Shown piece by piece: positions 8,254 to 63,976 of a DNA stretch of 64,000 nucleotides; position 1 is the first letter of the stretch; each line of letters starts with the position of its first letter. Position numbers and translations under genes: made by a program. A model generated the notes under the pieces. That model did no database searches and was not told the origin of the DNA. It saw nothing but the letters and a program-made list of their open reading frames with translations. The stretch is from Candidatus Woesearchaeota archaeon (GTDB lineage Archaea; Nanobdellota; Nanobdellia; SCGC-AAA011-G17; JACPIM01), in NCBI GenBank assembly GCA_964513145.1, contig CAZELK010000002.1, positions 65,113 to 129,112 of the forward strand. Reading direction: 5' to 3'.

Positions 8254-8285
8254 CCAGTTTTGCTTAAGCTTTTTTTGAAAGCTTA
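8254..8285 (-). repeat. Dispersed hairpin-tail element, AAGCTT type, overlapping fttA stop
   Basis: TAAGCTTTCAAAAAAAGCTTAAGCAAAACTGG on minus strand. Confidence 0.8.
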
Positions 8286-10184
8286 TCTTAATCGAATAGC
8301 TTCTAAATTCTTGGGAGATAATGTTTCTAGTTTAGTTAATTTATGCAAAGTAGAAGCTAATTCAAGACATTTTGAACTTTCACCATGACACATAACAAGC
8401 TTTTTTGGTCTTGGTTCCAAATTATTTACAAAATTAATTAATTGTGTTCTGTTGCTGTGCCCTGAAAATCCATGGATAACATGAACATCCATTTTAACTT
8501 CTAAAACTTCTTGTTTATTGCCATTCATAAAAGTAATCTGTCTTTCTCCATCTTCAAGCCTTCTGCCTATAGACCCTGGTCCTTGATAACAAGTCATTAC
8601 TATTGAATTTTTTGCATTGTCTGCTAGCATTTTGAAATATTCTAAAGACGCGCCGCCAGTCAACATTCCTGAAGTTGCTAAAATAACACATGGTCCTTTT
8701 TCTTCTACAACTTCCTGCATTTCTTTTCTTGACCCTACTCTTATAAACATATCAGATAAAAATGGATTTTGATCCTTGTGATAAATTAATTTTCTCACTT
8801 TGGAATTAAAAAAATCTGGATATGCTGTATGTATAGCAGTAATGTCCCAAACCAAACCCTGAACATACACTGGTATTTTTGGTAAAGTTCCTTCTCTAAC
8901 TAGTTTGTCTAAAATAACCATAATTTCTTGTGATCTTCCAGAACCTAAAACAGGAACTAAAACCTTTCCATTTCTTTCTAAAGTTTTTTTGATTATGTCA
9001 GTAAAAAATAATTCACATTCTCTTCTTGTTGGTGGCGTATCATTTTTCCCACCATAAGTAGCTTCCATTATGACAGTTTCTAGTCTTGGAAACCTTGTGT
9101 TTGCTGCTGAAAGCAAGTTGGAATTTTCATACAAAAAGTCGCCTGTATAGGCCAGGTTGTGTAAACCGTTGCCAATATGCAAATGACAAATAGCGCTTCC
9201 TAATTTGTGTCCAGCATCATAAAAAGTTAATCTGACATCTGGAGTAATATCGCTAACTTCTCCATAGTCTAAACATATTGTATGCATCACCATTTCTTTT
9301 ATATCTGAGGAAGAATAAATTGCCTTGTTTGCTTCTTTTTGTGCAATACTTATTAAATCCAAACATAGTAATGCAGCTATGTCTCTTGTTGGCATAGTCA
9401 TAAAAGATGGTCCTTTAAATCCCATTTTATATAAGTAAGGTAAAAAAGCAACATGGTCGACATGCGAATGGGAAATTATTACAGCATCAAGTTCCTCTAT
9501 TTTAAATTCAGGTGCTTCAAGTAATGGAAACATTTCTTCATTTGATTGTGCAGCAACATTTATTCCACAATCAAGTAATATTTTTGATTCCGGGGTTTGT
9601 AAAAATAAGCAGCTTCTTCCAACTTGTCTTCCTGCACCTAAAAAAGTTACTCTGACCCATTCGTCTACTCTTCCTTTTGTCCATCCGCCGTAAATTCTTT
9701 TTCCAACTTTGTTCAAGAATTTTTTCCTGTATTCAGAATTTTCAAATAAAGCATAATTAATAGTTTCAATTAATTTTGATCTTATTGGGGGTGTTCTTCT
9801 GACAATAGGTATCCAAAAAGTTTGTTTTCTTATCTCTCTTAGTACTTCCCCTTGTTTTCCTATAGCAATTCCAGGTTTTTCAACTTCTAAAGTGACTAAA
9901 GATCTTTGATTATCAAATAATAAATTTACTTCGCCAGCGTCTTTTGGTATTATTTCTTTTATTGTTTTTTCAGCTTTTTCAATATCCATTGTAATAGCAG
10001 GGTCTGGTCTTAATTCAACTCTTTTTTTTATAGTGTCAACTATAGTTTTTATAGTACCATTATTGTTCAAGAAAAAATCCTTGTCTTTTGTGTACAAAAC
10101 TATGTTTGCTCCTTCAAAACAAGAATCACTAATCTTAGAGCTATCTGGTATCAGCTTCATTATTTCTTCTAATATGTCTGGCAT
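8283..10184 (-). CDS. fttA: beta-CASP ribonuclease aCPSF1 / transcription termination factor FttA
   Basis: N-terminal KH domains, GAGRQVGRS, HSHVDH, FSGHS motifs; adjacent to proteasome beta. Confidence 0.95.
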   Translation of the reverse strand: MPDILEEIMKLIPDSSKISDSCFEGANIVLYTKDKDFFLNNNGTIKTIVDTIKKRVELRPDPAITMDIEKAEKTIKEIIPKDAGEVNLLFDNQRSLVTLEVEKPGIAIGKQGEVLREIRKQTFWIPIVRRTPPIRSKLIETINYALFENSEYRKKFLNKVGKRIYGGWTKGRVDEWVRVTFLGAGRQVGRSCLFLQTPESKILLDCGINVAAQSNEEMFPLLEAPEFKIEELDAVIISHSHVDHVAFLPYLYKMGFKGPSFMTMPTRDIAALLCLDLISIAQKEANKAIYSSSDIKEMVMHTICLDYGEVSDITPDVRLTFYDAGHKLGSAICHLHIGNGLHNLAYTGDFLYENSNLLSAANTRFPRLETVIMEATYGGKNDTPPTRRECELFFTDIIKKTLERNGKVLVPVLGSGRSQEIMVILDKLVREGTLPKIPVYVQGLVWDITAIHTAYPDFFNSKVRKLIYHKDQNPFLSDMFIRVGSRKEMQEVVEEKGPCVILATSGMLTGGASLEYFKMLADNAKNSIVMTCYQGPGSIGRRLEDGERQITFMNGNKQEVLEVKMDVHVIHGFSGHSNRTQLINFVNNLEPRPKKLVMCHGESSKCLELASTLHKLTKLETLSPKNLEAIRLR

Positions 10185-10235
10185 TTTCTTTGTTTAACTT
10201 GAGAAAAATTTCATTTATTTAAAAATAAAAAATGA

Positions 10236-10883
10236 TTAAACTATGATGTTTGTTTCTAATCTCTTTGTTAAGACTTTCTTTACACCATCTTTGGTAATTG
10301 TAAAGACGTCTATAGCTTCTCCTGTTGCTGCATCCCTTTGAATTGCTGCATTAACTGCTTTAACACCCAATTTTATTCCATCTTGGACAGTTATGCCCTC
10401 TTTGTATAAAGTGTCTAGTACACCCCAGGCCATAACCATTCCAGATCCGTCTGTAGCATAATTTTTATGTTCTAAAACAGAACCATCTGGACCTAATTCA
10501 TATAAATAAAAACCAGTGTCATCTTTTCCACCCAATAAAAATCCTGTAATACCAGGTATTGGACTGAATTTCCTTATATTTTGATAAACAATAGCACCCA
10601 ATAAATTAGCAGTAGTTTTAACTCCAACCTCTCTTCCTGATCTAATTTTTAATAATGTTAATTCAGCTTTTATTAATTTAGTAATTAATTGAACATCAGA
10701 AACTGTTCCTGCTGTAGTAATAGCCATATTATTTGATATCTGTGCAATTTTATCAACATTTTTATCTGCAATTATTCTTCCGGCAAAAGTAGCCCTTTTA
10801 TCAGCAGTCAACACTATTCCATCTTTACAAACTATTCCTACTGTAGTAGTTCCTTTTTTTACATAATCATTTACATCTTCCAT
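10236..10883 (-). CDS. psmB: Proteasome subunit beta
   Basis: Propeptide then G|TTTVG, ADKRAT, GSG. Confidence 0.95.
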   Translation of the reverse strand: MEDVNDYVKKGTTTVGIVCKDGIVLTADKRATFAGRIIADKNVDKIAQISNNMAITTAGTVSDVQLITKLIKAELTLLKIRSGREVGVKTTANLLGAIVYQNIRKFSPIPGITGFLLGGKDDTGFYLYELGPDGSVLEHKNYATDGSGMVMAWGVLDTLYKEGITVQDGIKLGVKAVNAAIQRDAATGEAIDVFTITKDGVKKVLTKRLETNIIV

Positions 10884-11023
10884 ATACTTTTTCTCCTTTT
10901 TAGGTTCGAAGAACTCAATTTAAATATCTATGAACTAAACATATTTATAAAACTTACGATTTCTAAATTTTTGCTAGGTTTAATAGATATTGCCTTATTA
11001 TCTTTATTTTAAACCTTCCTTAA

Positions 11024-11242
11024 TTATTCTATAAATTTAAATCTTGGAACTCTTTTGCTGTCTACAATTACATCTTCAAAAAACATTTTTTTAGGCCTAA
11101 TCCATATTGAATCTTTTCCATATTCCTTGCTGTCATGTTTGTAAATAACAAATTCTTCTAAAGTCTCGCTGTGTCTTCCTAAGCCAATAACATCACAAAT
11201 AATGCCTTTATAATGCAGATATTTTCCTTTTTTTATTTCCAT
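11024..11242 (-). CDS. DUF1653 family protein
   Basis: GKYLHYKG...RHSETLEEFVIYK...WIRPKKMF...RF. Confidence 0.8.
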   Translation of the reverse strand: MEIKKGKYLHYKGIICDVIGLGRHSETLEEFVIYKHDSKEYGKDSIWIRPKKMFFEDVIVDSKRVPRFKFIE

Positions 11243-12408: not shown

Positions 12409-12535
12409 TAAATAAGGTAAACATAGTTCATTAATATAAAACTTTCGAATACTAGCTTTAAAATCCGTAATTATTTCGAAATTTTTTCAGTTATTAATAT
12501 TAAGAAGTTCACTCTAATAGTTAATGTGAATAAAA

Positions 12536-14250: not shown

Positions 14251-14339
14251 ATTAGATAAAAACAAAGTTCATTTATTAATATTTTTAAAAAGTGTAACTG
14301 CGCTGGCCGAGGTTTGAAATCCCGAAACTTCTTTTAGTC

Positions 14340-14365
14340 TTTGATTAAACTTTTTTGAAAAGTTT
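14340..14365 (-). repeat. Dispersed hairpin-tail element, AAACTT type, in tRNA-Gly T-arm intron
   Basis: AAACTTTTCAAAAAAGTTTAATCAAA. Confidence 0.8.
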
Positions 14366-14391
14366 GCTCGGGTCAGAGCCTCTTTACTCGC

Positions 14392-14418
14392 TTTTGATTA
14401 AACTTTTTCAAAAGTTTA
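14392..14418 (-). repeat. Dispersed hairpin-tail element, AAACTT type, in tRNA-Gly anticodon intron
   Basis: TAAACTTTTGAAAAAGTTTAATCAAAA. Confidence 0.8.
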
Positions 14419-14572
14419 TTGGCAAGGCCCAATACTAACCACTATACTACCAGCGCATCAGTAATCTTTTGTAAAACAATTATATTTAAACCTTTTTAGT
14501 CATGAGGCTTTGTTGTGGAGTCCTAAATTTATTTAGAAAGATATTTAATACAATAAAATCTAATTTATTCGT

Positions 14573-14962: not shown

Positions 14963-14963
14963 A

Positions 14964-15097
14964 TGGGCCGAGAAGGATTTTCATTGCTTCTAGTTTTGTT
15001 TAAGCTTTTCTAAAAGCTTAATTTGAACCTTCGATCTAGACGGTGTAAACGTCTTGTCATTTGCAGAGTTAAAACTTAGCCACTAGACCACCGGCCC
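14964..15097 (-). tRNA. tRNA-Val(TAC) with two non-canonical introns: D-loop 20a/21 (15077-15061, 17 nt) and T-loop 59/60 (15021-14978, 44 nt)
   Basis: Acceptor GGGCCGG/TCGGCCC, anticodon stem AGACG/CGTCT with loop TTTACAC, T arm GAAGG-TTCAAAT-CCTTC after removing inserts; BHB motifs at both; CCA not encoded. Confidence 0.9.
14991..15020 (-). repeat. Dispersed hairpin-tail element, AAGCTT type, in tRNA-Val T-loop intron
   Basis: TAAGCTTTTAGAAAAGCTTAAACAAAACTA. Confidence 0.8.
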
Positions 15098-15164
15098 ACA
15101 CAAAGAAATTCTTACTTAGTCCCTATTTAAAATTATTGTTTTTTCTCAAAGCTTTTATTAAATA

Positions 15165-18796: not shown

Positions 18797-20518
18797 TTAA
18801 ATTCCCCATAAAGGTTCTTTCTTCCTTTTGAGTTCTGCAATTTCTTTCAAAAGTTCAATTTCTTCCCTATTTAAATATTTCTTAAGCTGCTTAAGTTTTA
18901 CAAAATCTGCCTCTCTTAAATCAGAAATCAATACATCCCTTTCCTTTATCTGCCTTCCAACAGTTACATTTGGCAGGGCTATGGCAACCTCATTATTTTT
19001 AACAGCAGATTCTACATTTTTACCTTCTAGTTGCATGCTTTTTACTTCAGAAATTTTATCTCCATTTAACTTGATTAAGGGTGTGCTGTTCTTAACTTGC
19101 CCACCCAAAACAATAACACCAACAACAGCAGGGTTTGACTGTCTAAAAATGCAGCCTGGTAATATCTGGATCTTGCAAGGTTTGATTACATTTTCAAGTT
19201 CTTTTTTCTCCTGTTCTTCCAGTTTTGATTTTTTCCAATTTTCATAATCTTCAATTAATTTGTAAATAACATCATGAGTTATTACTTTAACTTCTGCAGT
19301 ATTAAAATTTTTAATATTAAATCCCAAAATAACTTTGTTCAATTCATCTTCATCAGCAAGAGCATCTGAAATGTCTTTTTTAGAAATATTTCCAAGTGAA
19401 GCCTTTTTAATATTAATTTTATTTTGTTTTAGTAAATTGGTTAAAGCTTCCAAAGAACCAAGTGTATCTGCTTTGACAACTATTCCTTGTCTGTCAGTTT
19501 GAATTAAAACCTCTTCAACTTCTTTTTGTGCTTGCTCTTTGGCTTCATCTAAATTTTTGTTTGCAACAATTAAAGGCATTCCAGAAATTACATCCCTTAC
19601 ATTTGAAGCCAAGATTTTTGTTCCTGCTGCAGCAACTACTTCTTTAACTTCATTAAATTTAAATTTTTCATCAGCAATAGACAATGAACGTATTTTTGTC
19701 ACAATAGGTTTGTCAACACCACCAATTACAGCCTGGTCATTTTTCTTCAAAATGCCGTCATAAACAATAGCATAAATAACTGTTCCAGCATTTTCTTCTT
19801 TAACCTCAAGTATTGTTCCCTTTCCAGCAACATCCTTGTGAATTTCAAGATTTTTTTCTAAATATTTTTGAGCTAGACCGCAAAGAACCATTAATAATTC
19901 TGGTATTCCTTCTCCTGTTTTTGCAGAAACAGGAACAATTGAAACAGTTTTTGTATAATCGTCAACTCTGTCAAATCTTTCTGAATTAAATCCTAATTCA
20001 GAAAGTTTTCCAACCAAGGAATAAATTTTAGAGTCTAAAGCCTGCTTAACTCTGTCCTGCTGTAAACTTATGTTTTTAATCAAAAAATTATCTTTTTTCA
20101 GCCATCCTGGAGTAAGGTCTATTTTGTTTGCAGCAATTATAAATGGAGTCTTATATTGTTTCAAAATATTTATGCTTTCAATTGTTTGTTCTTTAATGCT
20201 TTCATTTATGTCTATAACTAAGACAGCTATATCAGCTAAATTTCCTCCTCTTTTTCTAAGGTTGTTAAAAGCAGCATGCCCTGGTGTGTCTAAAAATAAA
20301 ATTCCCGGGATGCTTAATTTAATTTTTAAGGTATCCAACAAAGTGCCGCATAACTGTCTTACAGTTTTAATGCTTAGGTTGGTAAAAGAAATTGCTTGAG
20401 TAATTCCTCCAGCCTCATTTGAAACAATATCAGTGTTCCTAATTTTGTCTAATATAGAGGACTTTCCATGGTCAATATGTCCTACTACTACGCATATTGG
20501 TGATCTGATATTGTTCAT
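18797..20518 (-). CDS. infB: Translation initiation factor aIF5B (IF-2)
   Basis: IRSPICVVVGHIDHGKSS, GGITQ, DTPGH, NKID; start reassigned to MNNIRSP at 20518. Confidence 0.95.
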   Translation of the reverse strand: MNNIRSPICVVVGHIDHGKSSILDKIRNTDIVSNEAGGITQAISFTNLSIKTVRQLCGTLLDTLKIKLSIPGILFLDTPGHAAFNNLRKRGGNLADIAVLVIDINESIKEQTIESINILKQYKTPFIIAANKIDLTPGWLKKDNFLIKNISLQQDRVKQALDSKIYSLVGKLSELGFNSERFDRVDDYTKTVSIVPVSAKTGEGIPELLMVLCGLAQKYLEKNLEIHKDVAGKGTILEVKEENAGTVIYAIVYDGILKKNDQAVIGGVDKPIVTKIRSLSIADEKFKFNEVKEVVAAAGTKILASNVRDVISGMPLIVANKNLDEAKEQAQKEVEEVLIQTDRQGIVVKADTLGSLEALTNLLKQNKINIKKASLGNISKKDISDALADEDELNKVILGFNIKNFNTAEVKVITHDVIYKLIEDYENWKKSKLEEQEKKELENVIKPCKIQILPGCIFRQSNPAVVGVIVLGGQVKNSTPLIKLNGDKISEVKSMQLEGKNVESAVKNNEVAIALPNVTVGRQIKERDVLISDLREADFVKLKQLKKYLNREEIELLKEIAELKRKKEPLWGI

Positions 20519-25918: not shown

Positions 25919-25946
25919 TTTTGATTAAACTTTTCCAAAAAGTTTA
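25919..25946 (-). repeat. Dispersed hairpin-tail element, AAACTT type, abutting mre11 start (antisense orientation)
   Basis: TAAACTTTTTGGAAAAGTTTAATCAAAA on minus strand. Confidence 0.8.
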
Positions 25947-29787: not shown

Positions 29788-30137
29788 AATAGGTGTGTTA
29801 TAAGCCAGCTTCTGTTGAATTTCCTTTCGGAAAAATTCAGGCTAACATTTTACTAAGCGTCTGTAATAGACTTGCACTAGTCAGGGCTTGCCGTTTCATC
29901 CATTCCTATGGAATGTCTTTGGGTTAACTCATTTCCATTTCAGGAAATTTCGCCATGTTCATCCTACCCATAGGGGGTCTCGTTTCTGAGCAGTTGCCAA
30001 CTTTTTCAAGTTCTTTTTTTCAAAAGTGACACTTTCACTTTCAAAAAAAGTTTTTTATAGCTTTTTCAAAAGTTTAAGTGGCTGGACTTTCCTCAGACAA
30101 GTTTAAGGCTTATCCGATAGTTAGCTGCACACCTATT
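29788..30137 (-). ncRNA. rnpB: RNase P RNA
   Basis: P1 AATAGGTGTG/CACACCTATT, CR-I GAGGAAAGTCC, GAAAC elements, CR-V AACAGAAGCTGGCTTAT; carries an AT-rich hairpin insert around 30001-30076. Confidence 0.9.
30057..30076 (-). repeat. Degenerate hairpin element inside RNase P RNA
   Basis: TAAACTTTTGAAAAAGCTAT followed by further T-run/A-run hairpins. Confidence 0.6.
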
Positions 30138-32153: not shown

Positions 32154-32184
32154 TAAGCTTTTAGAAAAAGCTTAAGCAAAAAAC
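32154..32184 (+). repeat. Dispersed hairpin-tail element after rps13 stop
   Basis: TAAGCTTTTAGAAAAAGCTTAAGCAAAAAAC. Confidence 0.8.
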
Positions 32185-33304: not shown

Positions 33305-34486
33305 TTATTTAATTCCAAAAATTTCTTCTTTGGCATAACCTCCCTTTCTTAAAATTCTCTCACCAGTTTTTATAACTTGACCTGAGCTTATTAACGATTT
33401 GGAATAAGTTTTATTCCCTTTGATATGACTTCTTATTACAGAATTTCCGACTTGAAGTTCTTTTGCTAGTTCAGATACGCTTTTTGGTTTTTCTTTTAAA
33501 GAATTAATAATTAAATCTTTAGTTTCTTTTGGTTTTCTTTTAAACCATGGGTGAAGTTGAATATTGCATAAAGCAAAAAGATTTTCTTCTTTGTAATTTA
33601 TAGGTAATGGAGAGATTGACTTATATAAATCTTGAAAACTAGACGCACTAAAACAAAATTTCCATACTGTACTTATATAATTGTATATCTTACCTTTTTC
33701 TTTTATGTTTATTTTTCTTGTTCTTGATGCTATTTTGTTTAATTTATAATAAATACTAAAAATTTCATGAAGATCTTCAACTAATTTTTTATTTGATAAT
33801 TCTATTCTTACTTTTTCATTTATATCACTTTCATCAATAATTAATGCTTTTACTATTTCATCTGTTAAGAATTTATTTTCTTTTGCAAGTTTCTTGAATT
33901 TTTCTGATAAAATACAAAGTTTTGAATTAAATGAATTAATTTCTAGAATTTTTATTGTTAAATAGGCGATAGTATATGAAAAGTATAATTGGTTTTCTTT
34001 TTCCATTAAATTTATTGGAACTTCTCCAAATATATTTAATCTCTTTTTATGATATTCAGTTAATGTTTCTTCATAAGAATAAAAATAATTTCCTCTTTTA
34101 AATCTGAACGAACCATCAAATATTAAATGAGGAGCAACATAAAATAAATCTTTTAAATTAAATGGGAGTTTGGGATTTTTTATTATTGTTCCATCTTCTT
34201 GATTCCCAATAGTTCCTATATTTTCTTCGACCTCTTCTTTTGATATATCTGAAAATTCTATTAATTGATTTAATTCTTTTATTGTAAGTCTTATTTCTTG
34301 ATTGAATAATCTTTTAGAGTGATAATCTTTACAGTCTAAAATGTATTGAAAGCAATTTTTGTACTTACATTTTAATTTAACTTGAATTATATAACATAAT
34401 TTTTCATGAAAATCTCTTTTTAAACTCACAAATATATCTTCAGGCAATTGCCAATAATGAATTGACAAATCCCCTTTTTTATCCAT
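33305..34486 (-). CDS. Free-standing LAGLIDADG-like two-motif protein with C-terminal HTH
   Basis: Motif 1 VAPHLIFDGS, motif 2 IVKALIIDES about 95 aa later; C-terminal KPKSVSELAKELQVGNSVIRSHI HTH. Confidence 0.65.
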   Translation of the reverse strand: MDKKGDLSIHYWQLPEDIFVSLKRDFHEKLCYIIQVKLKCKYKNCFQYILDCKDYHSKRLFNQEIRLTIKELNQLIEFSDISKEEVEENIGTIGNQEDGTIIKNPKLPFNLKDLFYVAPHLIFDGSFRFKRGNYFYSYEETLTEYHKKRLNIFGEVPINLMEKENQLYFSYTIAYLTIKILEINSFNSKLCILSEKFKKLAKENKFLTDEIVKALIIDESDINEKVRIELSNKKLVEDLHEIFSIYYKLNKIASRTRKINIKEKGKIYNYISTVWKFCFSASSFQDLYKSISPLPINYKEENLFALCNIQLHPWFKRKPKETKDLIINSLKEKPKSVSELAKELQVGNSVIRSHIKGNKTYSKSLISSGQVIKTGERILRKGGYAKEEIFGIK

Positions 34487-40941: not shown

Positions 40942-40969
40942 TAAACTTTTATAAAAAGTTTAATCAAAA
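40942..40969 (+). repeat. Dispersed hairpin-tail element upstream of rpoD (plus degenerate copy at ~40985-41003)
   Basis: TAAACTTTTATAAAAAGTTTAATCAAAA. Confidence 0.8.
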
Positions 40970-41006
40970 TGCTTCATATCTTGGAAGCTTTTCATAAAAG
41001 GTTCAA

Positions 41007-41786: not shown

Positions 41787-41849
41787 GAAAACCCTTTTGA
41801 GAAAAGCGTTTACGGAAAAAACGAAGAAAATTCACTAAATTAAAATAAA

Positions 41850-42526: not shown

Positions 42527-42955
42527 ATGATAATAGATGCAAAAGATTTGGTATTAGGAAGACTGGCTAGTTTTAGCGCTAAACAAGCTTTGTTAGGAGA
42601 AGAAGTTACTATAATAAATGTTGAAAAAGCTGTAATTAGCGGAAGCAAAGAAGATGTTTTAGCCAAATATAAATGGAGAGATAATTTGGGCGAACCTTTT
42701 AAAGGACCTTTTATGCCAAAAATACCAATGAAATTTGTTAAAAGAGTTATAAGGGGAATGTTGTCTTATAAAAAAGGAAGGGGAAAAGAAGCGTTTAAAA
42801 GAATTAAATGCTATCCAGGAAATCCAATGAATGTCAATGGCGTAACTTTAGAAAAAGCCAAATCAACAAAATTAAATAAGAGTAATTACATAACTGTAGA
42901 TGAACTTTGCAAAGAATTAAAAAACAAAGGAAAACCAGCAAAGAAAGCTTTTTAG
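42527..42955 (+). CDS. rpl13: 50S ribosomal protein uL13
   Basis: MIIDAKDLVLGRLAS, NVEKAVISG, KRVIRGML; start reassigned to 42527. Confidence 0.95.
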   Translation: MIIDAKDLVLGRLASFSAKQALLGEEVTIINVEKAVISGSKEDVLAKYKWRDNLGEPFKGPFMPKIPMKFVKRVIRGMLSYKKGRGKEAFKRIKCYPGNPMNVNGVTLEKAKSTKLNKSNYITVDELCKELKNKGKPAKKAF

Positions 42956-42976
42956 AAAAAAGCTTTAACAAAAAAC
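42944..42976 (+). repeat. Dispersed hairpin-tail element overlapping rpl13 C-terminus/stop
   Basis: AAAGCTTTTTAGAAAAAAGCTTTAACAAAAAAC. Confidence 0.8.
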
Positions 42977-46763: not shown

Positions 46764-47363
46764 ATGAAAACTATTTTTAAACCAGCAATTTGGAAGATAT
46801 TAAAATTATTTTATGAAAATAAGAATAAACCTATTCACCTTAGAGAAATCTCTCGTTTAGTGAAATTAAATGAGAGCACGATCTCAAGACATTTGAATAA
46901 CTTAATAAAAATGGATATTTTAAAAGCATTAACTGATGGAAACTTAAAAAAATTTTATGTAAATAAAAAGCATATACCTGACTTATTTCCTTTATTTGAT
47001 TCTGAAAAATTAGAATCTTTACCTATTCTAAGAAGAGATGCTATAAAACTATATCTCTCTAAAATAGAAAAAAAACCGGTTTTTTTAATTGTTTTCGGTT
47101 CAACAGCTAAAGGTAATTTTAACAAAGAATCAGATTTGGATTTATTAGAGATAATTTATACAAAAAATAGTAATGAAAAAGCCAAAGCATATGTTGAGGC
47201 TCAAACAGGAATTAAACTTCAAATTTTTAGAATAAGAGAGATACAATTTTATAAAGAATTAAGACTAAAAAATGACCGGGTTGTTCAAGCAGCTTTAGAA
47301 ACTGGTTTTCCTGTCTTTAATGGAAAATATTTTTATGAAGGGGTATTTAATGAAAGAAAATGA
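46764..47363 (+). CDS. HTH-fused minimal nucleotidyltransferase (MNT antitoxin-like)
   Basis: IHLREISRLV HTH; FGSTAKGNFNKESDLD = GS-x10-DxD. Confidence 0.85.
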   Translation: MKTIFKPAIWKILKLFYENKNKPIHLREISRLVKLNESTISRHLNNLIKMDILKALTDGNLKKFYVNKKHIPDLFPLFDSEKLESLPILRRDAIKLYLSKIEKKPVFLIVFGSTAKGNFNKESDLDLLEIIYTKNSNEKAKAYVEAQTGIKLQIFRIREIQFYKELRLKNDRVVQAALETGFPVFNGKYFYEGVFNERK

Positions 47364-47898
47364 ACTTATTAAAATCTTAAATGATAATGAAGGATTAAAC
47401 AATAAGATAAAGTTTTTTCTAAAAATAAAAAAATTAAGAAAACAAACTCTTAATGAGCAGGAACTGAGAGGACATATTGAAAAAGCAGAGCATAATCTTA
47501 ATTTTGTTAAAGATACTCTGGATAAAGAATATTCTGACTGGGCTATTGTTGGTTGTTATTATTCAATTTATCATATAGCTTTAGCACTTATTTTAATTAA
47601 AGGATATTACTCTAAAAATCATGATGCCACTTTATGTACTTTGATAAAAGAATATTATAAAAAAGAATTAACTGAAGAAGAAATTAAAATGTTGAATATT
47701 ATATATTTGGATAATGAAGATATTTTATTTTATGCTAATTCAAAAGACCAAAGAGAAAATGCCTCTTATTCAACTCAAATATCTTTTGACAAGAAATCTA
47801 TAGAAAGTTTAAGAGAGAAAACTTTATTATTCGTAAGAAAAGCTAATGATATAATTAATAAAAATACTGATTTTATTAATACGGGCTTAAATAAGTGA
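47350..47898 (+). CDS. HEPN domain protein (partner of upstream MNT)
   Basis: HIEKAEHNL, WAIVGCYYSIYH, SKNHDAT, QRENASY; start reassigned. Confidence 0.85.
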   Translation: MKENELIKILNDNEGLNNKIKFFLKIKKLRKQTLNEQELRGHIEKAEHNLNFVKDTLDKEYSDWAIVGCYYSIYHIALALILIKGYYSKNHDATLCTLIKEYYKKELTEEEIKMLNIIYLDNEDILFYANSKDQRENASYSTQISFDKKSIESLREKTLLFVRKANDIINKNTDFINTGLNK

Positions 47899-47921: not shown

Positions 47922-47948
47922 TAAACTTTAAAAAAGTTTAATCAAAAA
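47922..47948 (+). repeat. Dispersed hairpin-tail element abutting start of Cys-rich paralog 1
   Basis: TAAACTTTAAAAAAGTTTAATCAAAAA. Confidence 0.8.
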
Positions 47949-47951: not shown

Positions 47952-50900
47952 ATGAGACTATTAAAAGAGAAATCTATATCTATGATTTTTTTAATAATTA
48001 TTTCGACTATTTATTTCGGGTTGAATTTTCAAGATGTTGAATCGCAGAGAACTACTGGTCAAAATGCCTGCTGTGAAATAACTAAAAATGGCGAGTCTTG
48101 TGTTTATACTGACATTTCCCAATGTGATGTTACAAATGGACAAGCAAGCAGGTCGAGATGCGAAGACACTTCTTACTGCACTAATATTTGTTGTGTTGAC
48201 CAGGCTAACGGCTGTTTTCCAAATACACCAAAAGGGGCTTGCCAGAAACAACAAAATAGCATTAATAATGATGCTTCCTGCAAGTCTGTGAATGAATGTG
48301 CTTTGGGATGCTGTGTTGCCGGCAACCAGTATAGTTTTACTTCTGAAAATAACTGCAAAAATTTACTTAACACGATTTACGGAACTAATTATGATTTTTC
48401 TGATAAATTTAAGACTGCTGGAAGTGAGCAAGAGTGCTTAAAATTAAGTTTGAATGATAAAGAAGGCTGCTGTGTTGATAACTGCAAATATGGAATAAAA
48501 TCTTCATGTGGCGATGATTTTAAACTAGATACTAAATGCAGCTCTTTAAATAAGTGCAGTAATTGCAAGGAACGTTCTTATAAAGAGTGCAAGGATGGAA
48601 ATATTTACTGGTTTGATTCCTGCGGTAATCCTGAAGATTTAATTCAAAGTTGTGATTATTCACAAGGAAATTTATGTGCCAATGAAAATGGAAATGTTTA
48701 CTGCAGAAGTTTAGATTGTTCAACAACCAAAAAATATTCTGAATGGGATTATACTGGAAAATCCAGGCAACATGGGGAAAGCTGGTGTGTTTATGAAAGC
48801 CCAACTGGTAATTTTTTAGACAGGCCAGGAAGCATACAATATAGAAATAACTGTTTAAACAATGAAGAAGTAAGTGAAAGCTGTGGTGATTTTAGAAAAC
48901 AAGTTTGCGTACAAGCTAATTTTAATAATTCCGGGTTTTCTGAAGCTAGCTGTGTTAATAATAATATTTACAATTCTCCTGTAAACGCTAATATATCTAC
49001 AGTTCCTGTTGGATTTAAATTTTGGGAAGCAAATAAAAATAAGGATCAATGCAAAAAAGGATCAACAAAATGCACTGTTTATTATGCAAAAAAAGACAGA
49101 ATTTCTGACTGGGAATGCAAAGGAAATTGTTTTTGCGAGACTCAGGAATTTATAGATGAGGCAAATAATTACTGCAAAAGTTTTGGAGACTGTGGTTTTA
49201 ATTATAATACTTTAGGAAAAGAAGGAAGCGGCGGATTAAATGTTTACTGGACTGGTTCTGAAATTGGAGACAATCCAACAACTTTATCACAAGCTTATTT
49301 AGAAAGTTTGAAAAAATTTGGAATTTATGGTGGGATGAGTTTTTTAAGTACTGAAACTGAAAAAGTTATTCCAAGTTTAGATATTGATAATGAAGATATT
49401 TTCGAGGAAGTTTTGATTAGTGGGATTGTTGGTTATTCAATTTTTACGATTATTAATATTGCTTTTCTCTCTTTAGGTCAAGTAACTTTAGGGTTTTCTT
49501 TATTACTTCCACTTATTACTGGGGGTCTTATTGTAGCTCCAGGCGCAGGTGCATTGAGTGGTGGAATTTTTGTGACTGGTAGTGTTGGGGGTATTATTTT
49601 TGGTGTTATTGCTGTTGCTATTTTAATTACAACAGCTATTTTAGGTATACTTTCTAGCGGTGGCAGTGTAAAAGAGAAGACGATAAATATAGACTGCAGT
49701 CCTTGGCAGGCTCCTTTAGGTGGAAAGGATTGTGGGAAGTGCACAGAAGATTCTTCCAAGGAATGTACTGAATATAAATGCAGAAGTTTAGGTGCCAGCT
49801 GCAGATTAGTTAATACTGAAGCACAAGATTTGAGCAAAATAAAATGTGTAGATTCTAATCCAAATGATGTTGGTGCGCCAAAATTGAGTCCTTATGCTGA
49901 AGGATATAGTCCTGTAGTTGAAAGATTAGGGTATAGAGTTGAAAATGTTGAGCCATTGAAATTATTTAATTTCGGTGTTATTACTGATGAAGATGCAACT
50001 TGCAAATATGATTTTAAATTTTCTACAAAATATGATGAGATGCAATATCCATTAAGTGATTTTTTAGGAACAAAGCACAATATGACCTTAATTTTACAAG
50101 GAGGCAAGGAATTTAAGTATTATGTAAAATGCAGAGACATGAATGGAAATGCTGGAACAGATTATTTAATTACAATTAAAACAAAGAAAGAACCAGATAA
50201 ACAGGCACCAATAATAATCGATACAAGCATTAAAAATAATGGTGTAATACCAAGCAATCTTGAAGCAGTTCCTTTGGATTTAGTGCTGAATGAACCTGCA
50301 ACTTGCAAATATGATACAAAAGATAATAAAAAATATGAAGACATGAATAATTTGTCGCTTTGCAATGCCCAGTTTAGCTTAATTCCTACAGAATACAAAT
50401 GCACTACAGCCTTAACTGGCTTGAAGAAAGGAATCAATACTTTCTTTTTCAAATGCAGGGACTTAATGAATAATACTAATACTGGATCTATATTTAGCGT
50501 AATCAGAAGTGAATCTTTGAATATTACTATTGATCCTATTACTCCCAAGGATTCTGTAGTTTCAAATAATATTGTTTTAAGTTTAACAACTATTGGCGGA
50601 AGTGAACAAGGAAAGAGCATTTGCAAATACAGTGACAGGGATTTAGCTTATGAAGGGATGACTTTGTTTTTAACTACAGACAGTTCACATCATGTACAGC
50701 CCCAAACCAATCTAAAAAAAGGAAATTATAATTATTATGTTAAATGCAGGGATAATGCAGGGAATGAAGACAGCAAAAAGATTAATTTTAAAATTCTGGG
50801 TGAAAATGTTGGCAGTTCTGTAATTTATGTTTACAAGGATTCTTTTAATATAAATGTTGTTTTGAATGCAGAATCAAGTTGCGAATACAGTAATAAACAA

Positions 50901-51038
50901 TTCTCATTTGGGGCTGGGGAGAAAATGAGCGATGACAATACAGCTATGCATTCAGCACCTTTAGTTTATAATGAATATTATATCCAATGTAAAGATAGTG
51001 AAGGAAAAAACATTAATGGTTTGAGAGTATCAGTTTAA
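47952..51038 (+). CDS. Large Cys-rich exported protein, paralog 1
   Basis: Signal peptide ending QDVES|Q; many Cys modules; central Gly-rich hydrophobic block; C-terminal repeated beta-sandwich-like units. Confidence 0.85.
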   Translation: MRLLKEKSISMIFLIIISTIYFGLNFQDVESQRTTGQNACCEITKNGESCVYTDISQCDVTNGQASRSRCEDTSYCTNICCVDQANGCFPNTPKGACQKQQNSINNDASCKSVNECALGCCVAGNQYSFTSENNCKNLLNTIYGTNYDFSDKFKTAGSEQECLKLSLNDKEGCCVDNCKYGIKSSCGDDFKLDTKCSSLNKCSNCKERSYKECKDGNIYWFDSCGNPEDLIQSCDYSQGNLCANENGNVYCRSLDCSTTKKYSEWDYTGKSRQHGESWCVYESPTGNFLDRPGSIQYRNNCLNNEEVSESCGDFRKQVCVQANFNNSGFSEASCVNNNIYNSPVNANISTVPVGFKFWEANKNKDQCKKGSTKCTVYYAKKDRISDWECKGNCFCETQEFIDEANNYCKSFGDCGFNYNTLGKEGSGGLNVYWTGSEIGDNPTTLSQAYLESLKKFGIYGGMSFLSTETEKVIPSLDIDNEDIFEEVLISGIVGYSIFTIINIAFLSLGQVTLGFSLLLPLITGGLIVAPGAGALSGGIFVTGSVGGIIFGVIAVAILITTAILGILSSGGSVKEKTINIDCSPWQAPLGGKDCGKCTEDSSKECTEYKCRSLGASCRLVNTEAQDLSKIKCVDSNPNDVGAPKLSPYAEGYSPVVERLGYRVENVEPLKLFNFGVITDEDATCKYDFKFSTKYDEMQYPLSDFLGTKHNMTLILQGGKEFKYYVKCRDMNGNAGTDYLITIKTKKEPDKQAPIIIDTSIKNNGVIPSNLEAVPLDLVLNEPATCKYDTKDNKKYEDMNNLSLCNAQFSLIPTEYKCTTALTGLKKGINTFFFKCRDLMNNTNTGSIFSVIRSESLNITIDPITPKDSVVSNNIVLSLTTIGGSEQGKSICKYSDRDLAYEGMTLFLTTDSSHHVQPQTNLKKGNYNYYVKCRDNAGNEDSKKINFKILGENVGSSVIYVYKDSFNINVVLNAESSCEYSNKQFSFGAGEKMSDDNTAMHSAPLVYNEYYIQCKDSEGKNINGLRVSV

Positions 51039-51049
51039 TTTTGTGGAAT

Positions 51050-54000
51050 ATGTATAAATTTAAATTTTTTAAAAAAGAGGAAGCTGTTTTTATGATTTAC
51101 TTGATAGTTTCTTTAAGCTTAGTTTTTCAGATTTCCCAGGATGTTGAAGCACAATCGAATAATGTTTGCTGCGAATTAACCAAGCCTGGAGATTCTTGTG
51201 TTTATACTAGCAGAGACCAATGCAATACGCAAAATGGCAGGCAGATTAGTCCACTTAGATGTGAAGATTCTTTTTTTTGTGTTGATATCTGTTGTGTTGA
51301 CCAGAATAGCTGTTCACCAAATACACCAAAATCTTCTTGCCAGACCAGAACAAATACAAGAATTTTTAGTGACAATACTTGTTTGAGCGTAAGCCAATGC
51401 AATCTTGGTTGCTGTACTGTTGGAAATGATAAAAGATTTATCCAAGAAATTCAATGCAAGAATTTAGCTGACATTGTTTTGGGAAGTAATTATAATTTTG
51501 GTGATGTTTTTAAAAAAATTCCAATTAATGAATGTATTTTGCAATCACAAAATGAAAACGGATGCTGCATTAGCAATGGGATTTGCAGCTCTGGAAATGA
51601 ATTAACCTGTGCTGGAAATTTTAATTCTGGGAAAGAATGCAGTACTTTAAATGAATGCAGTAATTGTGAAAGACATTCTTACAAAGACTGCAGAGACGGG
51701 AATATTTACTGGTTTGATTCCTGTGGCAATACTGAAGATTTAGCTGAAACATGTAATTTTAATGATGGAAGTTTATGTGTTAAAGAAAATGATAATGCTT
51801 TTTGCAGAAATTTAGACTGTCCAAATACTAAAAAATATGAAGGGTGGGATTATACTGGAAAACCCAGAAAAAATGGAGAGAGCTGGTGTATTTATGACGG
51901 TCCAACTGGAAATTTTACAGACAGGCCAGGAAGCAGGCATTACAAAGCCAGTTGTTTAAATGGGGAAGAGATTGTAGAAAATTGCAGAGACTATAGGGAA
52001 CAAGTCTGTATACCACTTAATTATAAAGAAGGATTTTCACAAGCAGAATGTGTTAATAATAATATTTATGATTCTATAGTTAAAGTTGATATTTCAAGTG
52101 TGCCAACAGGTTTTAAGTTTTGGGAAACTGAACAAGATCTTAAAAATAAATGCAATAAAGGATCAAGATCCTGCACTGTAGTTTATCTTAAGGAAGACAG
52201 GTTTTCTGACTGGGAATGTGAAGGAAATTGTTTTTGCGAGACTCAGGGATTTATAGATGAAGCAAATAATTACTGCAAAAGTTTTGGAGACTGCGGTTTT
52301 AATTATAATACTTTAGGAAAAGAAGGAAGCGGCGGATTAAATGTTTACTGGACTGGAACAGAATTAGGAGACAGCCCAAACACTTTAAGCGAGAATTATC
52401 TTAATTTTTTAAAAAAATTTGGAATTTATGGGGGCATGAGATTTCTTGATGATGAATCCAAAAAAATAATAAATGCACCTGAAACAGAAGCAAACAAGTA
52501 TCTCCATGATATTTTGATTTTTGGACCTATAGCTGCTTCCGGATCTTATGCTGTTTTGAATTATCTGGCGACAGGATTTATACCGAACTTAATGGGTCTT
52601 ATTATAGGCAGTGCTCTCGGGGCTTCATTAGCACCTATATTTGGAGAAGATCCCCTTGAAGGAGCTTATGTTGGGGCAGCAGTTACAGCTGCCGGAGCAT
52701 CATCCTCTCTTAGTACTGCAGCTACTACGTCCAGTTATTTTGGGCCCCCTGGGTGGATAGTTGCTGCAATTCTCGCTATTGCTTCTCTTGCTTTATCTGT
52801 TGTTTACAGTGGCGGGGGTGTAAGAGAAAAAACAATTAATATAGACTGCAATCCATGGCAAGCTCCTTTAGGTGGAAGTAATTGTGGGAAATGCACAGAA
52901 GATTCTTCAAAAGAATGTACAGAATACAGGTGCAGAAGTCTGGGAATAAATTGCAGAATATCAGATGAATTTACTGATCATGTTCAATGTGTAAATATTA
53001 ATACTAATGACATTAATTCACCAAAAATATCTCCTTTACTTATACAAGATTATAGTTTAATAGAGGATAGACTGGGCTATAAAATAAAAGAACCAGTTGA
53101 TCCTTCCGAGCAACTTACTTTTGGAATTATTACTGATGAAGATGCAACTTGCAAATATGATTTTACTGTTTTTACAAAATATGAAGACATGAGATATAGT
53201 TTTGGAGATACTTTATTTAAGAAAGAACGCAATTTAACTTTGTTTTTAGAAGGAAATAAAGAATTTAATTATTATGTTAAATGCCAGGATACAAATGGGA
53301 ATATTGGACATGATTATTTAATTAATTTTAGAACTAAAAAAGAGATTGACAAACAAGCACCAATAATTATTGATACAAGCATTGAAAATAACGCAATTGT
53401 ACCAAATATTTTAGATAAGACTTTACTTGAATTAGAATTAAATGAGCCCAGTATCTGCAGATATGATGTAAAAGATAAAAAATATGATGAAATGACAAAT
53501 CAGGGAATCTGCAATAATGAGTTTAGTTCAGTTCCTGTCAAATATAATTGCAAATTAGCTTTAAACAATCTGAAAAAGGGAGCTAATGGTTATTATTTTA
53601 GATGCAGAGATTTCTTTAATAATACAAATCCACAATCTTACAAATTTAGCTTAATTAAAAGCGAGCCTTTAGTAATTACTGTAAATGATGTTACTCCAAA
53701 AGATTTTAGCTATCAGAATGATATTACTTTAAGCCTGACTACTTCTTTAGGAAGCAATCAAGGAATAAGTGTTTGCAAATTTAGTGAACAGAATTTACCT
53801 TTTGAAAGAATGATTGAATTTAAAAATACAAACGGCGTGAATCATTTACAATTACAGACTGACTTGAAAAAAGGAAATTACAATTATTATGTCAAATGCA
53901 GAGACAATGTTGGAAATGAAGACAGTGAAAAAATTAGTTTTAAAGTTGTTTTAGACGGCAAGAGAAAAGACATTGTTTCTTTTTATAAAGATGCCAATGC

Positions 54001-54190
54001 CCTGTATTTAATTTTAAATGTTGAGTCTAATTGTGAGTATAATAATAAAGATTTTATTTATGGTCAAGGAATTAAAATGGGCGGAGAAGATACGACGACA
54101 CATGTTGCACCATTAACTTTTAATGATTATTATATTAAATGCAAAGATAATGATTACAAGGATATTAAGGGAATTAAAATAAATGTTTAA
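51050..54190 (+). CDS. Large Cys-rich exported protein, paralog 2
   Basis: Same architecture (QDVEA|Q; GESWC.Y; CKSFGDCG; PWQAP.GG.C.KC). Confidence 0.85.
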   Translation: MYKFKFFKKEEAVFMIYLIVSLSLVFQISQDVEAQSNNVCCELTKPGDSCVYTSRDQCNTQNGRQISPLRCEDSFFCVDICCVDQNSCSPNTPKSSCQTRTNTRIFSDNTCLSVSQCNLGCCTVGNDKRFIQEIQCKNLADIVLGSNYNFGDVFKKIPINECILQSQNENGCCISNGICSSGNELTCAGNFNSGKECSTLNECSNCERHSYKDCRDGNIYWFDSCGNTEDLAETCNFNDGSLCVKENDNAFCRNLDCPNTKKYEGWDYTGKPRKNGESWCIYDGPTGNFTDRPGSRHYKASCLNGEEIVENCRDYREQVCIPLNYKEGFSQAECVNNNIYDSIVKVDISSVPTGFKFWETEQDLKNKCNKGSRSCTVVYLKEDRFSDWECEGNCFCETQGFIDEANNYCKSFGDCGFNYNTLGKEGSGGLNVYWTGTELGDSPNTLSENYLNFLKKFGIYGGMRFLDDESKKIINAPETEANKYLHDILIFGPIAASGSYAVLNYLATGFIPNLMGLIIGSALGASLAPIFGEDPLEGAYVGAAVTAAGASSSLSTAATTSSYFGPPGWIVAAILAIASLALSVVYSGGGVREKTINIDCNPWQAPLGGSNCGKCTEDSSKECTEYRCRSLGINCRISDEFTDHVQCVNINTNDINSPKISPLLIQDYSLIEDRLGYKIKEPVDPSEQLTFGIITDEDATCKYDFTVFTKYEDMRYSFGDTLFKKERNLTLFLEGNKEFNYYVKCQDTNGNIGHDYLINFRTKKEIDKQAPIIIDTSIENNAIVPNILDKTLLELELNEPSICRYDVKDKKYDEMTNQGICNNEFSSVPVKYNCKLALNNLKKGANGYYFRCRDFFNNTNPQSYKFSLIKSEPLVITVNDVTPKDFSYQNDITLSLTTSLGSNQGISVCKFSEQNLPFERMIEFKNTNGVNHLQLQTDLKKGNYNYYVKCRDNVGNEDSEKISFKVVLDGKRKDIVSFYKDANALYLILNVESNCEYNNKDFIYGQGIKMGGEDTTTHVAPLTFNDYYIKCKDNDYKDIKGIKINV

Positions 54191-54277
54191 TAAGCTTTTA
54201 AGAAAAGCTTAAGCAAAACTGGCAGTCTTTAAAAAAACTTAAGCAAAAACAAACTTTTTAAGAAAAATTTCAAAAAA
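54191..54277 (+). repeat. Cluster of one full and two degenerate hairpin-tail elements after Cys-rich paralog 2
   Basis: TAAGCTTTTAAGAAAAGCTTAAGCAAAACTGG (AAAAGCTTAAGCAAAACTGG identical to the copy at 8254) then ..AAAAAAACTTAAGCAAAAAC and AAACTTTTTAAGAAAAATTTCAAAAAA. Confidence 0.75.
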
Positions 54278-54343
54278 ATAAAGACAATATTTCTGCTGCT
54301 CACTAGTAATTGAAATTTTTGTGTATTAGTAATTAATATATCA

Positions 54344-59428: not shown

Positions 59429-59488
59429 CAAAACTTAATATTTATATAGATAATATTTTTAATAAATAGCATAGGAACTGTTTTAAGA

Positions 59489-59550
59489 AAAGCCTTTAGA
59501 ATATTTGAAAGCTTAAGCAAAATAACTTTTTAAATAAAAAGTTGACAAAA
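59489..59550 (+). repeat. Two degenerate hairpin-tail elements between abiEii and Cys-rich paralog 3
   Basis: AAAGCCTTT..GAAAGCTTAAGCAAAA and AACTTTTTAAATAAAAAGTTGACAAAA. Confidence 0.6.
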
Positions 59551-59593
59551 ACTATAAAAATAATTTACTGAAAAATTTAATATTAAAAAAGAG

Positions 59594-63382: not shown

Positions 63383-63444
63383 GGATTGTACCCTTACAAC
63401 CTGCTTGAGAAAAGCCTTAAAATAACTTTAGTAACTAATTATTT

Positions 63445-63625
63445 TTAAAATTTTCTCACTAAATCTTTGGTAGATTTTTTTCTTAAATTATAAATATCTT
63501 CTTTTATTTTTCTTGCTTCTTTATCACTAGTATTTTTCCAGGCACCAGCAAAATCCATAATGTTCTTATTCTTTTTTGTTTTTCTTCTTATTACACTAGA
63601 AAAACTTTCTCTTTTACGCTTATTT
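63445..63625 (-). pseudogene. Remnant of VapB-like/DUF217 RHH antitoxin (N-terminus replaced, no partner toxin)
   Basis: RESFSSVIRR...IMDFAGAW...EARKIKEDI pattern; upstream in-frame sequence does not resemble the family N-terminus. Confidence 0.5.
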
Positions 63626-63906
63626 TTATGAAAGCCGTACCCAGGAAAACCATGTTCTTCAGAACATGGATGAATTGGGGTATATTTTTTATTCTTAAAA
63701 ATTTCTGCAGTTAATCTCATGTCGGAAACTTTTCATAAATCCCGTAAGTCTTCCGAAGAAACCGAAAATCTTCCGAAAATCCTTTTAAAATATCTTTGAA
63801 CCACAATAACATTTAAATATCCTAGCTCTTTAATATCATTCACTGCTTCAGCAGTCTATCGCTGGACAAGCGAAAAGTGACGCCTGTTTGAGATAATGTA
63901 AGACCT

Positions 63907-63976
63907 GAACATTTTTGGAAAAAATCTTCACCAAAAAACAATGAAGAACATTTTTGGAAAAAATCTTCACCAAAAA
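63907..63976 (+). repeat. 31-bp direct repeat x2 (period 39), hairpin-tail variant
   Basis: GAACATTTTTGGAAAAAATCTTCACCAAAAA at 63907-63937 and 63946-63976. Confidence 0.85.

Follow-up and report, generated by a model that had tools for sequence, protein, structure and literature searches.

Known families of short palindromic repeats include the bacterial repetitive extragenic palindromes and interspersed mosaic elements (REP/BIME), which are imperfect palindromes of 20-40 nt with a conserved extension on one side, lie outside genes, behind them or inside operons, and form clusters in tandem or alternating orientation at tens to hundreds of copies per genome; REPs are species-specific. Rickettsia palindromic elements (RPE), which measure 100-150 bp, occur in frame in coding genes and in a stable RNA. 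In Archaea, tRNA introns of the Thermoproteales that are spliced at bulge-helix-bulge (BHB) motifs have been transposed, and their gain, inferred from close relatives, is thought to take place at the DNA level by a mechanism that is unknown (Fujishima et al. 2010, as related in PMC4090602). Here we describe a repeat of 27-45 nt, a short hairpin followed by an A-rich tail, in a 64,000-nt stretch (the window; contig 2, positions 65113-129112) of the 0.98-Mb genome (29% GC, 98.8% complete) of a Candidatus Woesearchaeota archaeon, called G000 below. The repeat is found at stop codons, ahead of starts and within tRNA genes, and it is probably an insertional element akin to REPs and miniature inverted-repeat transposable elements (MITEs) that is spliced out after landing in tRNA loops.

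The core 14-mer of the element, AAAGYTTNANCAAA, which covers the 3' arm and the tail, has 12 exact matches within the window, against 0.33 ± 0.60 (maximum 3) in 100 dinucleotide shuffles, and 57 matches genome-wide, where Markov simulations lead one to expect 3-8. The original prediction, made from the letters of the window, spoke of at least 12 dispersed copies and proposed a genome-wide motif search against shuffled sequence; the search places the frequency far above any shuffled or simulated background, so that AT-rich noise does not account for the copies, and the repeat is a genuine dispersed family. Since a generic hairpin scan (any core with a T-run and an A-run) gave counts no higher than the Markov background and an iterative nhmmer search did not enlarge the family, the census was built on the 14-mer and is to be read as a lower bound on copy number. 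Only one of the 57 copies falls within a called open reading frame (ORF). The tail N-A-N-C-AAA stands on one side only in 35 of 46 hairpins of the type AA[AG]CTTT..AAAG[CT]TT, and the element is therefore asymmetric and oriented. Copies in G000 are 90-100% identical to those in the three genomes of the same genus (G001-G003), despite an identity of only ~73% in coding DNA with these closest genomes available. Rfam covariance models at E<=1 found no family other than RNase P in the window, and searches of the literature by topic and by motif letters found no published description of the repeat.

The hairpin of 8-10 bp consists of a 4-5-nt core and T4/A4 runs on a foot that is mostly TAA, and the tail, A-N-C-AAAA, lies single-stranded on its 3' side. 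Counted from the foot, the fourth pair of the stem is A-T in 22 copies and G-C in 12, with a recurrent C.C mismatch in 6 and other combinations in 3, and the outermost stem pair is T-A (30), A-T (6) or G-C (2). The variable base of the tail is linked to the fourth stem position: all 22 A-T copies have T, 9 of the 12 G-C copies have G, and 5 of the 6 C.C copies have C. The pair counts bear out the earlier view that the two main variants differ by a compensatory change of G-C to A-T in the stem. The tail mirrors the A-run of the 3' arm, and the 5' arm, the 3' arm and the tail form three linked segments. The co-variation of tail T with A-T and of tail G with G-C may be likened to the intrastrand-triplex repeats BoxC/PIT of enterobacteria, but the third variant, with its C.C mismatch and tail C, fits no standard triplet. 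As RNA, perfect copies fold with -4.7 to -7.4 kcal/mol (z -1.8 to -4.4), and the mismatch variants show no significant RNA folding. Copies stand singly, in head-to-tail rows, or in inverted pairs with their feet outward. In length, palindromy, one-sided extension, extragenic position, clustering and copy number the element resembles REP/BIME, whereas its extension is 3' and A-rich and its copies are found also in tRNA genes and are common to several phyla.

No tRNA was detected in the window by default ARAGORN or by Rfam, either at the gathering score or at E<=1, and the tRNA genes became visible only after manual removal of their introns. Excision of the introns in silico followed by ARAGORN yielded canonical cloverleafs for tRNA-Gly(GCC) and tRNA-Val(UAC), in agreement with the claim that three window copies are tRNA introns:

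14299-14456, minus strand: tRNA-Gly(GCC) gene with two element-bearing introns, missed by default ARAGORN and Rfam
14382-14419, minus strand: tRNA-Gly intron 37/38, 38 nt, a hairpin of the A-T variant with its tail, followed by GCGAGTAAAG
14319-14366, minus strand: tRNA-Gly intron 53/54, 48 nt, present only in G000, its last 6 nt (CGGGAT) site-specific
14963-15098, minus strand: tRNA-Val(UAC) gene with a 17-nt D-loop mini-intron without the element and an element-bearing T-loop intron
14978-15021, minus strand: tRNA-Val T-loop intron 59/60, 44 nt, of which only bases 2-30 match other copies

In each element-bearing intron of the window, the predicted 5' splice site falls at the foot of the hairpin, the hairpin occupies the place of the inner helix, and the final bases of the intron are complementary to the exon. 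By inspection, the central helices are TTGC/GTAA (Gly 37/38), CCCG/CGGG (Gly 53/54) and TTCA/TGAA (Val 59/60), with 3-nt bulges on both sides, so that in the 4-bp central helix, the two bulges and the cloverleaf restored in silico these introns resemble the archaeal BHB introns spliced by EndA. The motif is relaxed here, because in two of the three introns a tail of 11-17 nt parts the inner from the central helix. G000 has one gene for an EndA alpha subunit (a 197-aa ORF; contig 7, 33779-34039), which fits the reported pattern that alpha4-type EndAs with an extra loop go with heavy tRNA disruption in DPANN archaea (PMC5829648). Beyond the window, tRNA-Ser(UGA) of G000 has three element-bearing introns, and tRNA-Arg(TCG) has a forward and an inverted copy as a pair inside its intron and a further inverted copy in its leader. 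The Rfam tRNA model gives only 26 matches in G000, 18 of them above the cut-off, although the genome is nearly complete.

The two introns that are found in G000 alone lead back to copies outside genes. For the T-loop intron of tRNA-Val the best match is the intergenic copy at 54191, and this match extends over the element only. The body of the tRNA-Gly 53/54 intron shares 97% identity, in a 31-nt alignment, with a copy that lies outside genes behind tRNA-Ile (contig 2, ~34325-34355). The new introns therefore consist of repeat copies and ~6-14 site-specific bases. Judged from these alignments, a new intron is a copy of the element with a few site-specific bases that would complete the BHB motif. 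As regards a kinship with MITEs or with PATEs derived from IS200-IS605, the tRNA-Val intron has a 4-nt AAAT repeat, which is either a duplication or something that the BHB motif requires, and there was no general duplication.

Comparison with relatives shows which of these introns come and go. The tRNA-Val T-loop intron is absent from G001, G002, G003 and from G008, a genome of another genus, and the tRNA-Gly 53/54 intron likewise has no counterpart among the relatives compared. An intron in the D-loop of tRNA-Gly is present in G002 and G003 only; the 37/38 intron of the same tRNA is found in all five relatives compared, each with its own hairpin variant. The D- and T-loop introns of tRNA-Ser occur in the genus and not in G008, and in G002 the T-loop intron of this tRNA has an unrelated hairpin. 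The intron of tRNA-Arg forms a series, with a bare hairpin that makes a canonical BHB in G001, a forward copy only in G002, an inverted copy only in G003, and both in G000 and G008; the pair is 91% identical between these last two genomes, which belong to two genera. Every intron that varies among the relatives has the element in it, and the proposed link to intron gain is therefore real. The accompanying idea, that copies landing in tRNA loops are simply neutralised by BHB splicing, holds in part: each intron also has a short exon-complementary 3' segment, from which the central helix of 4 bp and the 3' bulge are formed, and landing would therefore have to be followed by a further step or by selection.

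The recurrence of one intron sequence in several tRNAs and at several positions, and its presence or absence among relatives, are shared with the transposed introns of the Thermoproteales. The present family differs in that the shared part is a module of 27-45 nt rather than a whole intron, in that its copies are mostly extragenic (at stops, at starts and on viral contigs) and are matched by the new introns, and in that it spans DPANN and methane-cycling Euryarchaeota. One may ask whether the family is primarily a BHB intron which, like those of the Thermoproteales, is mobile among tRNA genes, its intergenic and post-stop copies having escaped or decayed. Of the 57 copies, 12 or more are within tRNA genes or next to them, homologous introns occupy differing positions in differing tRNAs, and tRNA-Ser and tRNA-Val have T-loop introns with similar 3' parts (ATTGAAAG, AATGAAAAT), all of which such an origin would predict. 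We nevertheless regard it as quite improbable, for the new tRNA-Val intron resembles intergenic copies and no other intron, with a 3' part that is unique, the tRNA-Gly 53/54 intron matches an extragenic copy, and the majority of copies are extragenic and occur also on viral contigs and in genomes of anaerobic methanotrophic archaea (ANME-1). Moreover, reverse splicing of RNA, which works in sense only, cannot yield inverted copies, and no reverse transcriptase was found in G000.

Three observations on tRNA genes stand apart from these comparisons. The D-loop mini-intron of tRNA-Val, of 15-22 nt, is present in all five genomes compared, without the element and with a sequence that differs in each, and it looks like an older intron class. 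The gene for tRNA-Ile(GAT) (contig 2, 34270-34520) has an element-bearing D-loop intron, and the forward copy 4 nt 3' of its end is the nearest kin of the tRNA-Gly 53/54 intron. In the leader of tRNA-Arg(TCG) (L255, contig 11, 25290-25540; L268-L271) an inverted copy fills the space 3' of a conserved TTTTTA(T/A)ATA box, and 1-2 nt separate its foot from the mature 5' end; the copy is kept in five of five genomes compared, and this positional conservation hints at a function.

The remaining copies of the window, two cases discussed below excepted, lie at the ends and beginnings of protein genes:

8258-8285, minus strand: forward copy of the G-C variant, its first three bases (TAA) being the stop codon of fttA
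25919-25946, minus strand: inverted copy with the hairpin foot 1 nt ahead of the mre11 ATG
32154-32181, plus strand: forward copy adjoining the stop codon of rps13, at a junction left empty in G008, L044, L046 and L047
32844-32873, plus strand: forward copy that provides the final codons and the TAG stop of rps4
40942-41006, plus strand: composite of a forward A-T copy (40942-40969) and an inverted mismatch-type hairpin, the inverted foot abutting the rpoD ATG at 41007
41789-41820, plus strand: fourth variant, AACCCTTTT..AAAAGCGTT with TACGGAAAA, directly 3' of the rpoD stop
42944-42973, plus strand: forward copy with the rpl13 stop inside; the rpl13/rps9 junction is an ATGA overlap in G008
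47922-47947, plus strand: forward copy with a HEPN gene on one side and the first (1028-aa) of two paralogs on the other
54191-54285, plus strand: head-to-tail row in which an intact copy, 3' of the 1049-aa paralog's stop, is followed by two decayed ones
59482-59552, plus strand: two tandem forward copies, one of G-C type with a long loop, one of TAACTTTTT..AAAAAGTT type

Pfam confirmed the neighbouring genes as those for FttA, S13, S4, S11, L13, an Mre11-like phosphoesterase and RpoD. Hairpin feet are found at all five of the stop codons that had been named (fttA, rps13, rps4, rpl13 and the 1049-aa paralog), and the copies ahead of mre11, rpoD and the first paralog were likewise recovered, as was the co-orientation of the window copies with transcription, the mre11 copy excepted. 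The stops of rps4 and rpl13 fall in the hairpin loop, that of fttA is the TAA of the hairpin, and the fttA copy has only T3 in the sense orientation. The copies at 41789-41820 and 59482-59552 and the two decayed ones after 54218 had escaped the original prediction. The paralogous neighbouring ORFs at 47952-51038 (1028 aa) and 51041-54190 (1049 aa) have no Pfam match, and the HEPN-domain gene (47320-47898) lies just upstream of them.

These positions follow a rule. In G000, 13 of the 57 copies lie in forward orientation with their foot on a co-oriented stop codon or a few bases from it, compared with 1.5 ± 1.2 (maximum 6) in 300 trials of random placement in non-coding sequence. Inverted copies mirror this, with the foot toward a start codon, a mature tRNA 5' end or a 3' exon; for start codons the excess is marginal (6 observed, 1.8 ± 1.2 expected). 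Viral contigs, described below, obey the same rule, with feet at 9 stops and 5 starts. Copies thus persist in sense behind stops and tRNA 3' ends, inverted before starts, tRNA 5' ends and 3' exons, and inside tRNA loops, and a restriction to 3' ends, for which we checked, does not hold. Where the flanking genes of G000 are co-directional, 19 copies are in sense and 8 in antisense. The strand bias had been taken as a property of insertion, but on viral contigs, with orientations of 22 versus 26, the bias of the operons is gone, and it looks like an effect of selection.

At the level of gene junctions, filled and empty sites can again be compared. The junctions rps13/rps4, rps4/rps11 and rpl13/rps9 have a stop, 0-2 nt and an ATG, or an overlap, in G008, L044 (one junction), L046 and L047, and they hold different variants or orientations of the element in G000, L041, G001-G003 and L045. 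The closest metagenome relative, L041, with 82% identity in rps4, is syntenic only from rps13 to rps11 and has the same copy as G000 behind rps13. Presence/absence polymorphism among relatives is therefore found at both ORF junctions and tRNA genes, and it is shown that units come and go at the DNA level within the time in which species of one genus diverge.

The location of copies near gene boundaries raises the question of plain transcription signals, that is, bidirectional oligo-T terminators and/or promoters with a transcription factor B recognition element (BRE) and a TATA box, which would be alike merely through AT-richness. The 5' arm and the opposite strand contain T4-T7 runs, AAAAG-TTTAATCA has a loose likeness to a BRE with a TATA box, and the inverted copy at mre11 occupies positions -30 to -19 of the ATG. 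Against such signals stand the copies within tRNA genes and within co-transcribed ribosomal-protein operons, the fttA copy with its short T-run, the canonical TATA boxes upstream of tRNAs, one of them ahead of the tRNA-Arg leader copy, the G-C variant (CTTAAGCA), which makes a poor TATA box, and the conservation of a 27-mer in genomes of 40-49% GC, which goes beyond AT-richness. We consider this explanation very improbable. More specific candidates were set aside as well. The 3' arm and tail as a BRE/TATA promoter were rejected in view of the ordinary TTTATATA boxes that the tRNA genes use, one of which precedes the tRNA-Arg leader copy, and an intrinsic terminator, in view of the A-run that follows in sense and of the copies in tRNA introns, leaders and operon interiors. 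Nor do we propose a mimic of the tRNA minihelix (a T-loop-like loop with an A-N-C-A tail) or a 'punctuation' for RNase P/Z, in view of the variation at position 74 of the supposed CCA.

Two window copies require a more guarded description:

30053-30078, minus strand: degenerate element-like stretch in RNase P RNA, inside a ~40-nt expansion that is absent from G001
63907-63977, plus strand: pair of the mismatch variant with a spacing of 39 nt, within what remains of a TnpB 3' end where the contig stops (63860-64000)

The RNase P RNA gene (29789-30136, minus strand, 115 bits) had been listed among the hosts of the element, but the stretch has only its first 16 bases in common with it, has no A-N-C-AAAA tail and does not fold (dG 0), and this copy is doubtful, although it lies within sequence that the RNase P RNA of G001 lacks; it is possibly a decayed copy. 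The P8 region is an insertion hot spot of this RNA (L005, L039, L040), being short in G001 and expanded in G000, G008 and G019, a genome of another family, by different hairpin-rich sequences of 40-70 nt. In G019 the P8 insertion is a clear hairpin with tail, and a further insertion of 33 nt lies near the 3' end of its RNase P RNA. The tandem third variant at 63907/63946 is present as predicted; it is part of the TnpB remnant, however, and no independent insertion, as an intact TnpB on contig 12 (~5400-5720) has the same mismatch pair with its 39-nt spacing in frame (EHFWKK..SPK twice). Two further TnpB loci (contig 7, ~19045-19130; contig 1, ~189700-189800) have a fourth-variant copy near the 3' end of the gene and an A-T copy within a GCCAC/GTGGC stem downstream. 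The C-terminus of rps4, the in-frame pair in TnpB and the tRNAs recall the RPEs, which are likewise short palindromes tolerated where insertions are usually lethal. Unlike the RPEs, which are longer and are retained in the product, the copies in tRNAs are predicted to be spliced out through the BHB motif.

The element is not confined to this genus, and its spread is patchy. Copy numbers are 57 in G000, 70-95 in its genus relatives (92 in G002), 75 in G008, 62 in G019, 17 in G020, 12 in G017 and 7 each in G010 and G009; no more than 7 were counted in the remaining relatives, one excepted, and 21 of the 30 relatives searched have 0-7 copies. The exact 27-mer pattern was found on 28 virus-like IMG/VR contigs, some with tandem rows of 29-30-nt period; only 5 of the 277 ORFs on these contigs have a G000 homologue, and 66 of the 67 copies are intergenic, in both orientations. 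One of the contigs, L078, has three spacers with exactly one copy each. The same pattern occurs on more than 116 GTDB contigs, whose titles name Woese-, Pace-, Nano-, Aenigmat-, Micr-, Iain- and Altiarchaeota and also Methanosarcinales, Methanophagales, Methanobrevibacter and Methanobacteriota.

The euryarchaeal carriers have 40-49% GC and housekeeping genes as neighbours of the element. Three mcrA-bearing genomes have 46, 55 and 22 copies, with 0-2 matches for a control pattern, and there are 28-152 copies in each of the 16 genomes listed first among the relatives of G031 (G031 counted). In the methane-cycling carriers the tail is followed by an extra conserved AYGCTTCGCAG, and the element lies behind tRNA 3' ends and stops. 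The 23 ANME-1 sites sampled in 20 loci are mostly intergenic, one of them behind a tRNA, and in one ANME-1 and one Methanosarcinales genome forward copies follow a look-alike tRNA 3' end (GGTTGCCGCA-TC). The original prediction of a REP/MITE-like family in a DPANN archaeon thus holds as regards a dispersed repeat, and is too narrow as regards its host, for the repeat is also abundant in ANME-1, Methanosarcinales and Methanobacteriota and on virus-like contigs. A link between DPANN and methane-cycling archaea through this repeat appears to be new.

Some euryarchaeal copies are embedded in larger units. The Methanosarcinales genome G032 (L216-L220) has five near-identical composites of ~110 nt, in each of which a forward copy of mismatch type and an inverted one are accompanied by outer inverted repeats (GACACAGATTTACACAC..), with a TATATAAAG box upstream; these may be a repeated small-RNA gene or a MITE, and Rfam returned only weak generic hairpin matches for the euryarchaeal composites. 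In the Methanobacteriota genome G035 (L224, L225) there are tandem units of ~97 nt, each with an element (CAAACTTTTCACAAAAGTTTGATCAAAA) and a diverging GC-rich part, which are not CRISPR-like, because the 'spacers' are mutually homologous. On contig L176 of a Methanosarcinales metagenome-assembled genome, a direct repeat of 25 nt flanks one copy and takes in the 3' end of a tRNA gene encoded on the opposite strand, which looks like an att-type duplication at a tRNA.

We favour a REP/MITE-like insertional repeat for its turnover among relatives, its rows and inverted pairs, its viral copies and its patchy spread. A short non-autonomous palindromic repeat would insert at the DNA level, since inverted copies exist even in introns. 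In tRNA loops the hairpin would supply the inner helix beside the bulge of the 5' splice site, the A-rich tail would serve as a linker, and 4 exon-complementary nucleotides with a bulge would complete the BHB motif, whereupon EndA would cut the insert out. The sense bias in operons may stem from selection against the T-richer antisense strand, and the strict conservation of sequence may reflect a sequence-specific partner.

Several results weigh against this reading. Contigs from four groundwater metagenomes of the source site showed breaks at copies only and no strain-level gain or loss; no clean target duplication was definable; and with the closest genomes as divergent as stated above, there was no case of a recent insertion between identical flanks. 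The reading also offers no origin for the exon-complementary 3' segment of a new intron. Nor did the search for a mover provide a candidate: Y1_Tnp (PF01797) has no match in G000-G003, G019 or G020, and matches in copy-poor relatives; the Y1 genes of ANME-1 are not flanked by the element; and RVT_1 has no match in G000 at E<=0.001, where a reverse transcriptase may have escaped assembly or have diverged too far. The earlier statement that the window encodes no mobilising enzyme therefore extends to the genome for these two families, and the absence of a Y1/RAYT gene from G000 and its copy-rich relatives is a further difference from REP/BIME. TnpB has 6 matches in G000, none in G002 despite its 92 copies and 13 in G029 with a single copy, and its counts are unrelated to copy number across 31 genomes.

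Finally, the near-identical sequence and sub-variants across phyla, the tRNA-Arg leader copy in five genomes and the one-per-spacer layout of L078 would also fit a selected boundary signal, that is, a punctuation mark in RNA or DNA that is recognised by a host factor and spread by selection and gene conversion rather than by selfish transposition. Such a mark would act in 3'-end formation or protection behind stops and tRNAs, in the definition of 5' ends when inverted, and as the inner helix of the BHB motif. It would also account for feet that abut stops, starts, tRNA ends and splice sites far above chance, for a leader copy and an intron pair conserved between two genera, and for the copies after look-alike tRNA 3' ends in ANME-1 and Methanosarcinales. 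On the other hand, most genera of the same family are without the element or have it at background level, orthologous junctions are empty in some relatives and hold other variants or orientations elsewhere, and ribosomal-protein genes that overlap in relatives cannot need it. The rows of decaying copies and the in-frame TnpB copies look selfish, the hairpin is followed in sense by an A-run and not a T-run, and the tRNA promoters of G000 are ordinary TTTATATA boxes. The positional rule and the strict conservation of sequence make room for a boundary signal of this kind, or for a recognition partner that is universal, but on balance we think this unlikely, and we retain the insertional repeat as the reading that the data favour.

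A wider proposal, which we put forward only tentatively, is that a pan-archaeal, virus-borne element is the raw material of BHB introns, its three linked segments being read by a machinery that spreads horizontally or is universal; for an extragenic copy that lands in a tRNA loop, ~6 site-specific bases would then suffice to make a spliceable intron. If true, this would describe a general route of archaeal intron gain and a channel of exchange among DPANN, methane-cycling archaea and viruses.

As to how tRNA introns arrive in archaeal genomes, a 2026 census of Asgard tRNA genes found intron gains to be frequent and could not identify a route (bioRxiv 10.64898/2026.10.13.758758). Here, the sequence of new introns can be traced to an extragenic repeat of the same genome, and the need for only a handful of extra bases to form the splicing motif makes the process experimentally approachable. 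The repeat also accounts for the failure of standard tools to recover more than roughly half of the tRNA genes to be expected in genomes of this kind. The sharing of one repeat by DPANN, ANME-1, Methanosarcinales, Methanobacteriota and virus-like contigs points to either an unrecognised traffic of sequences or a conserved recognition system among the archaea of the subsurface.

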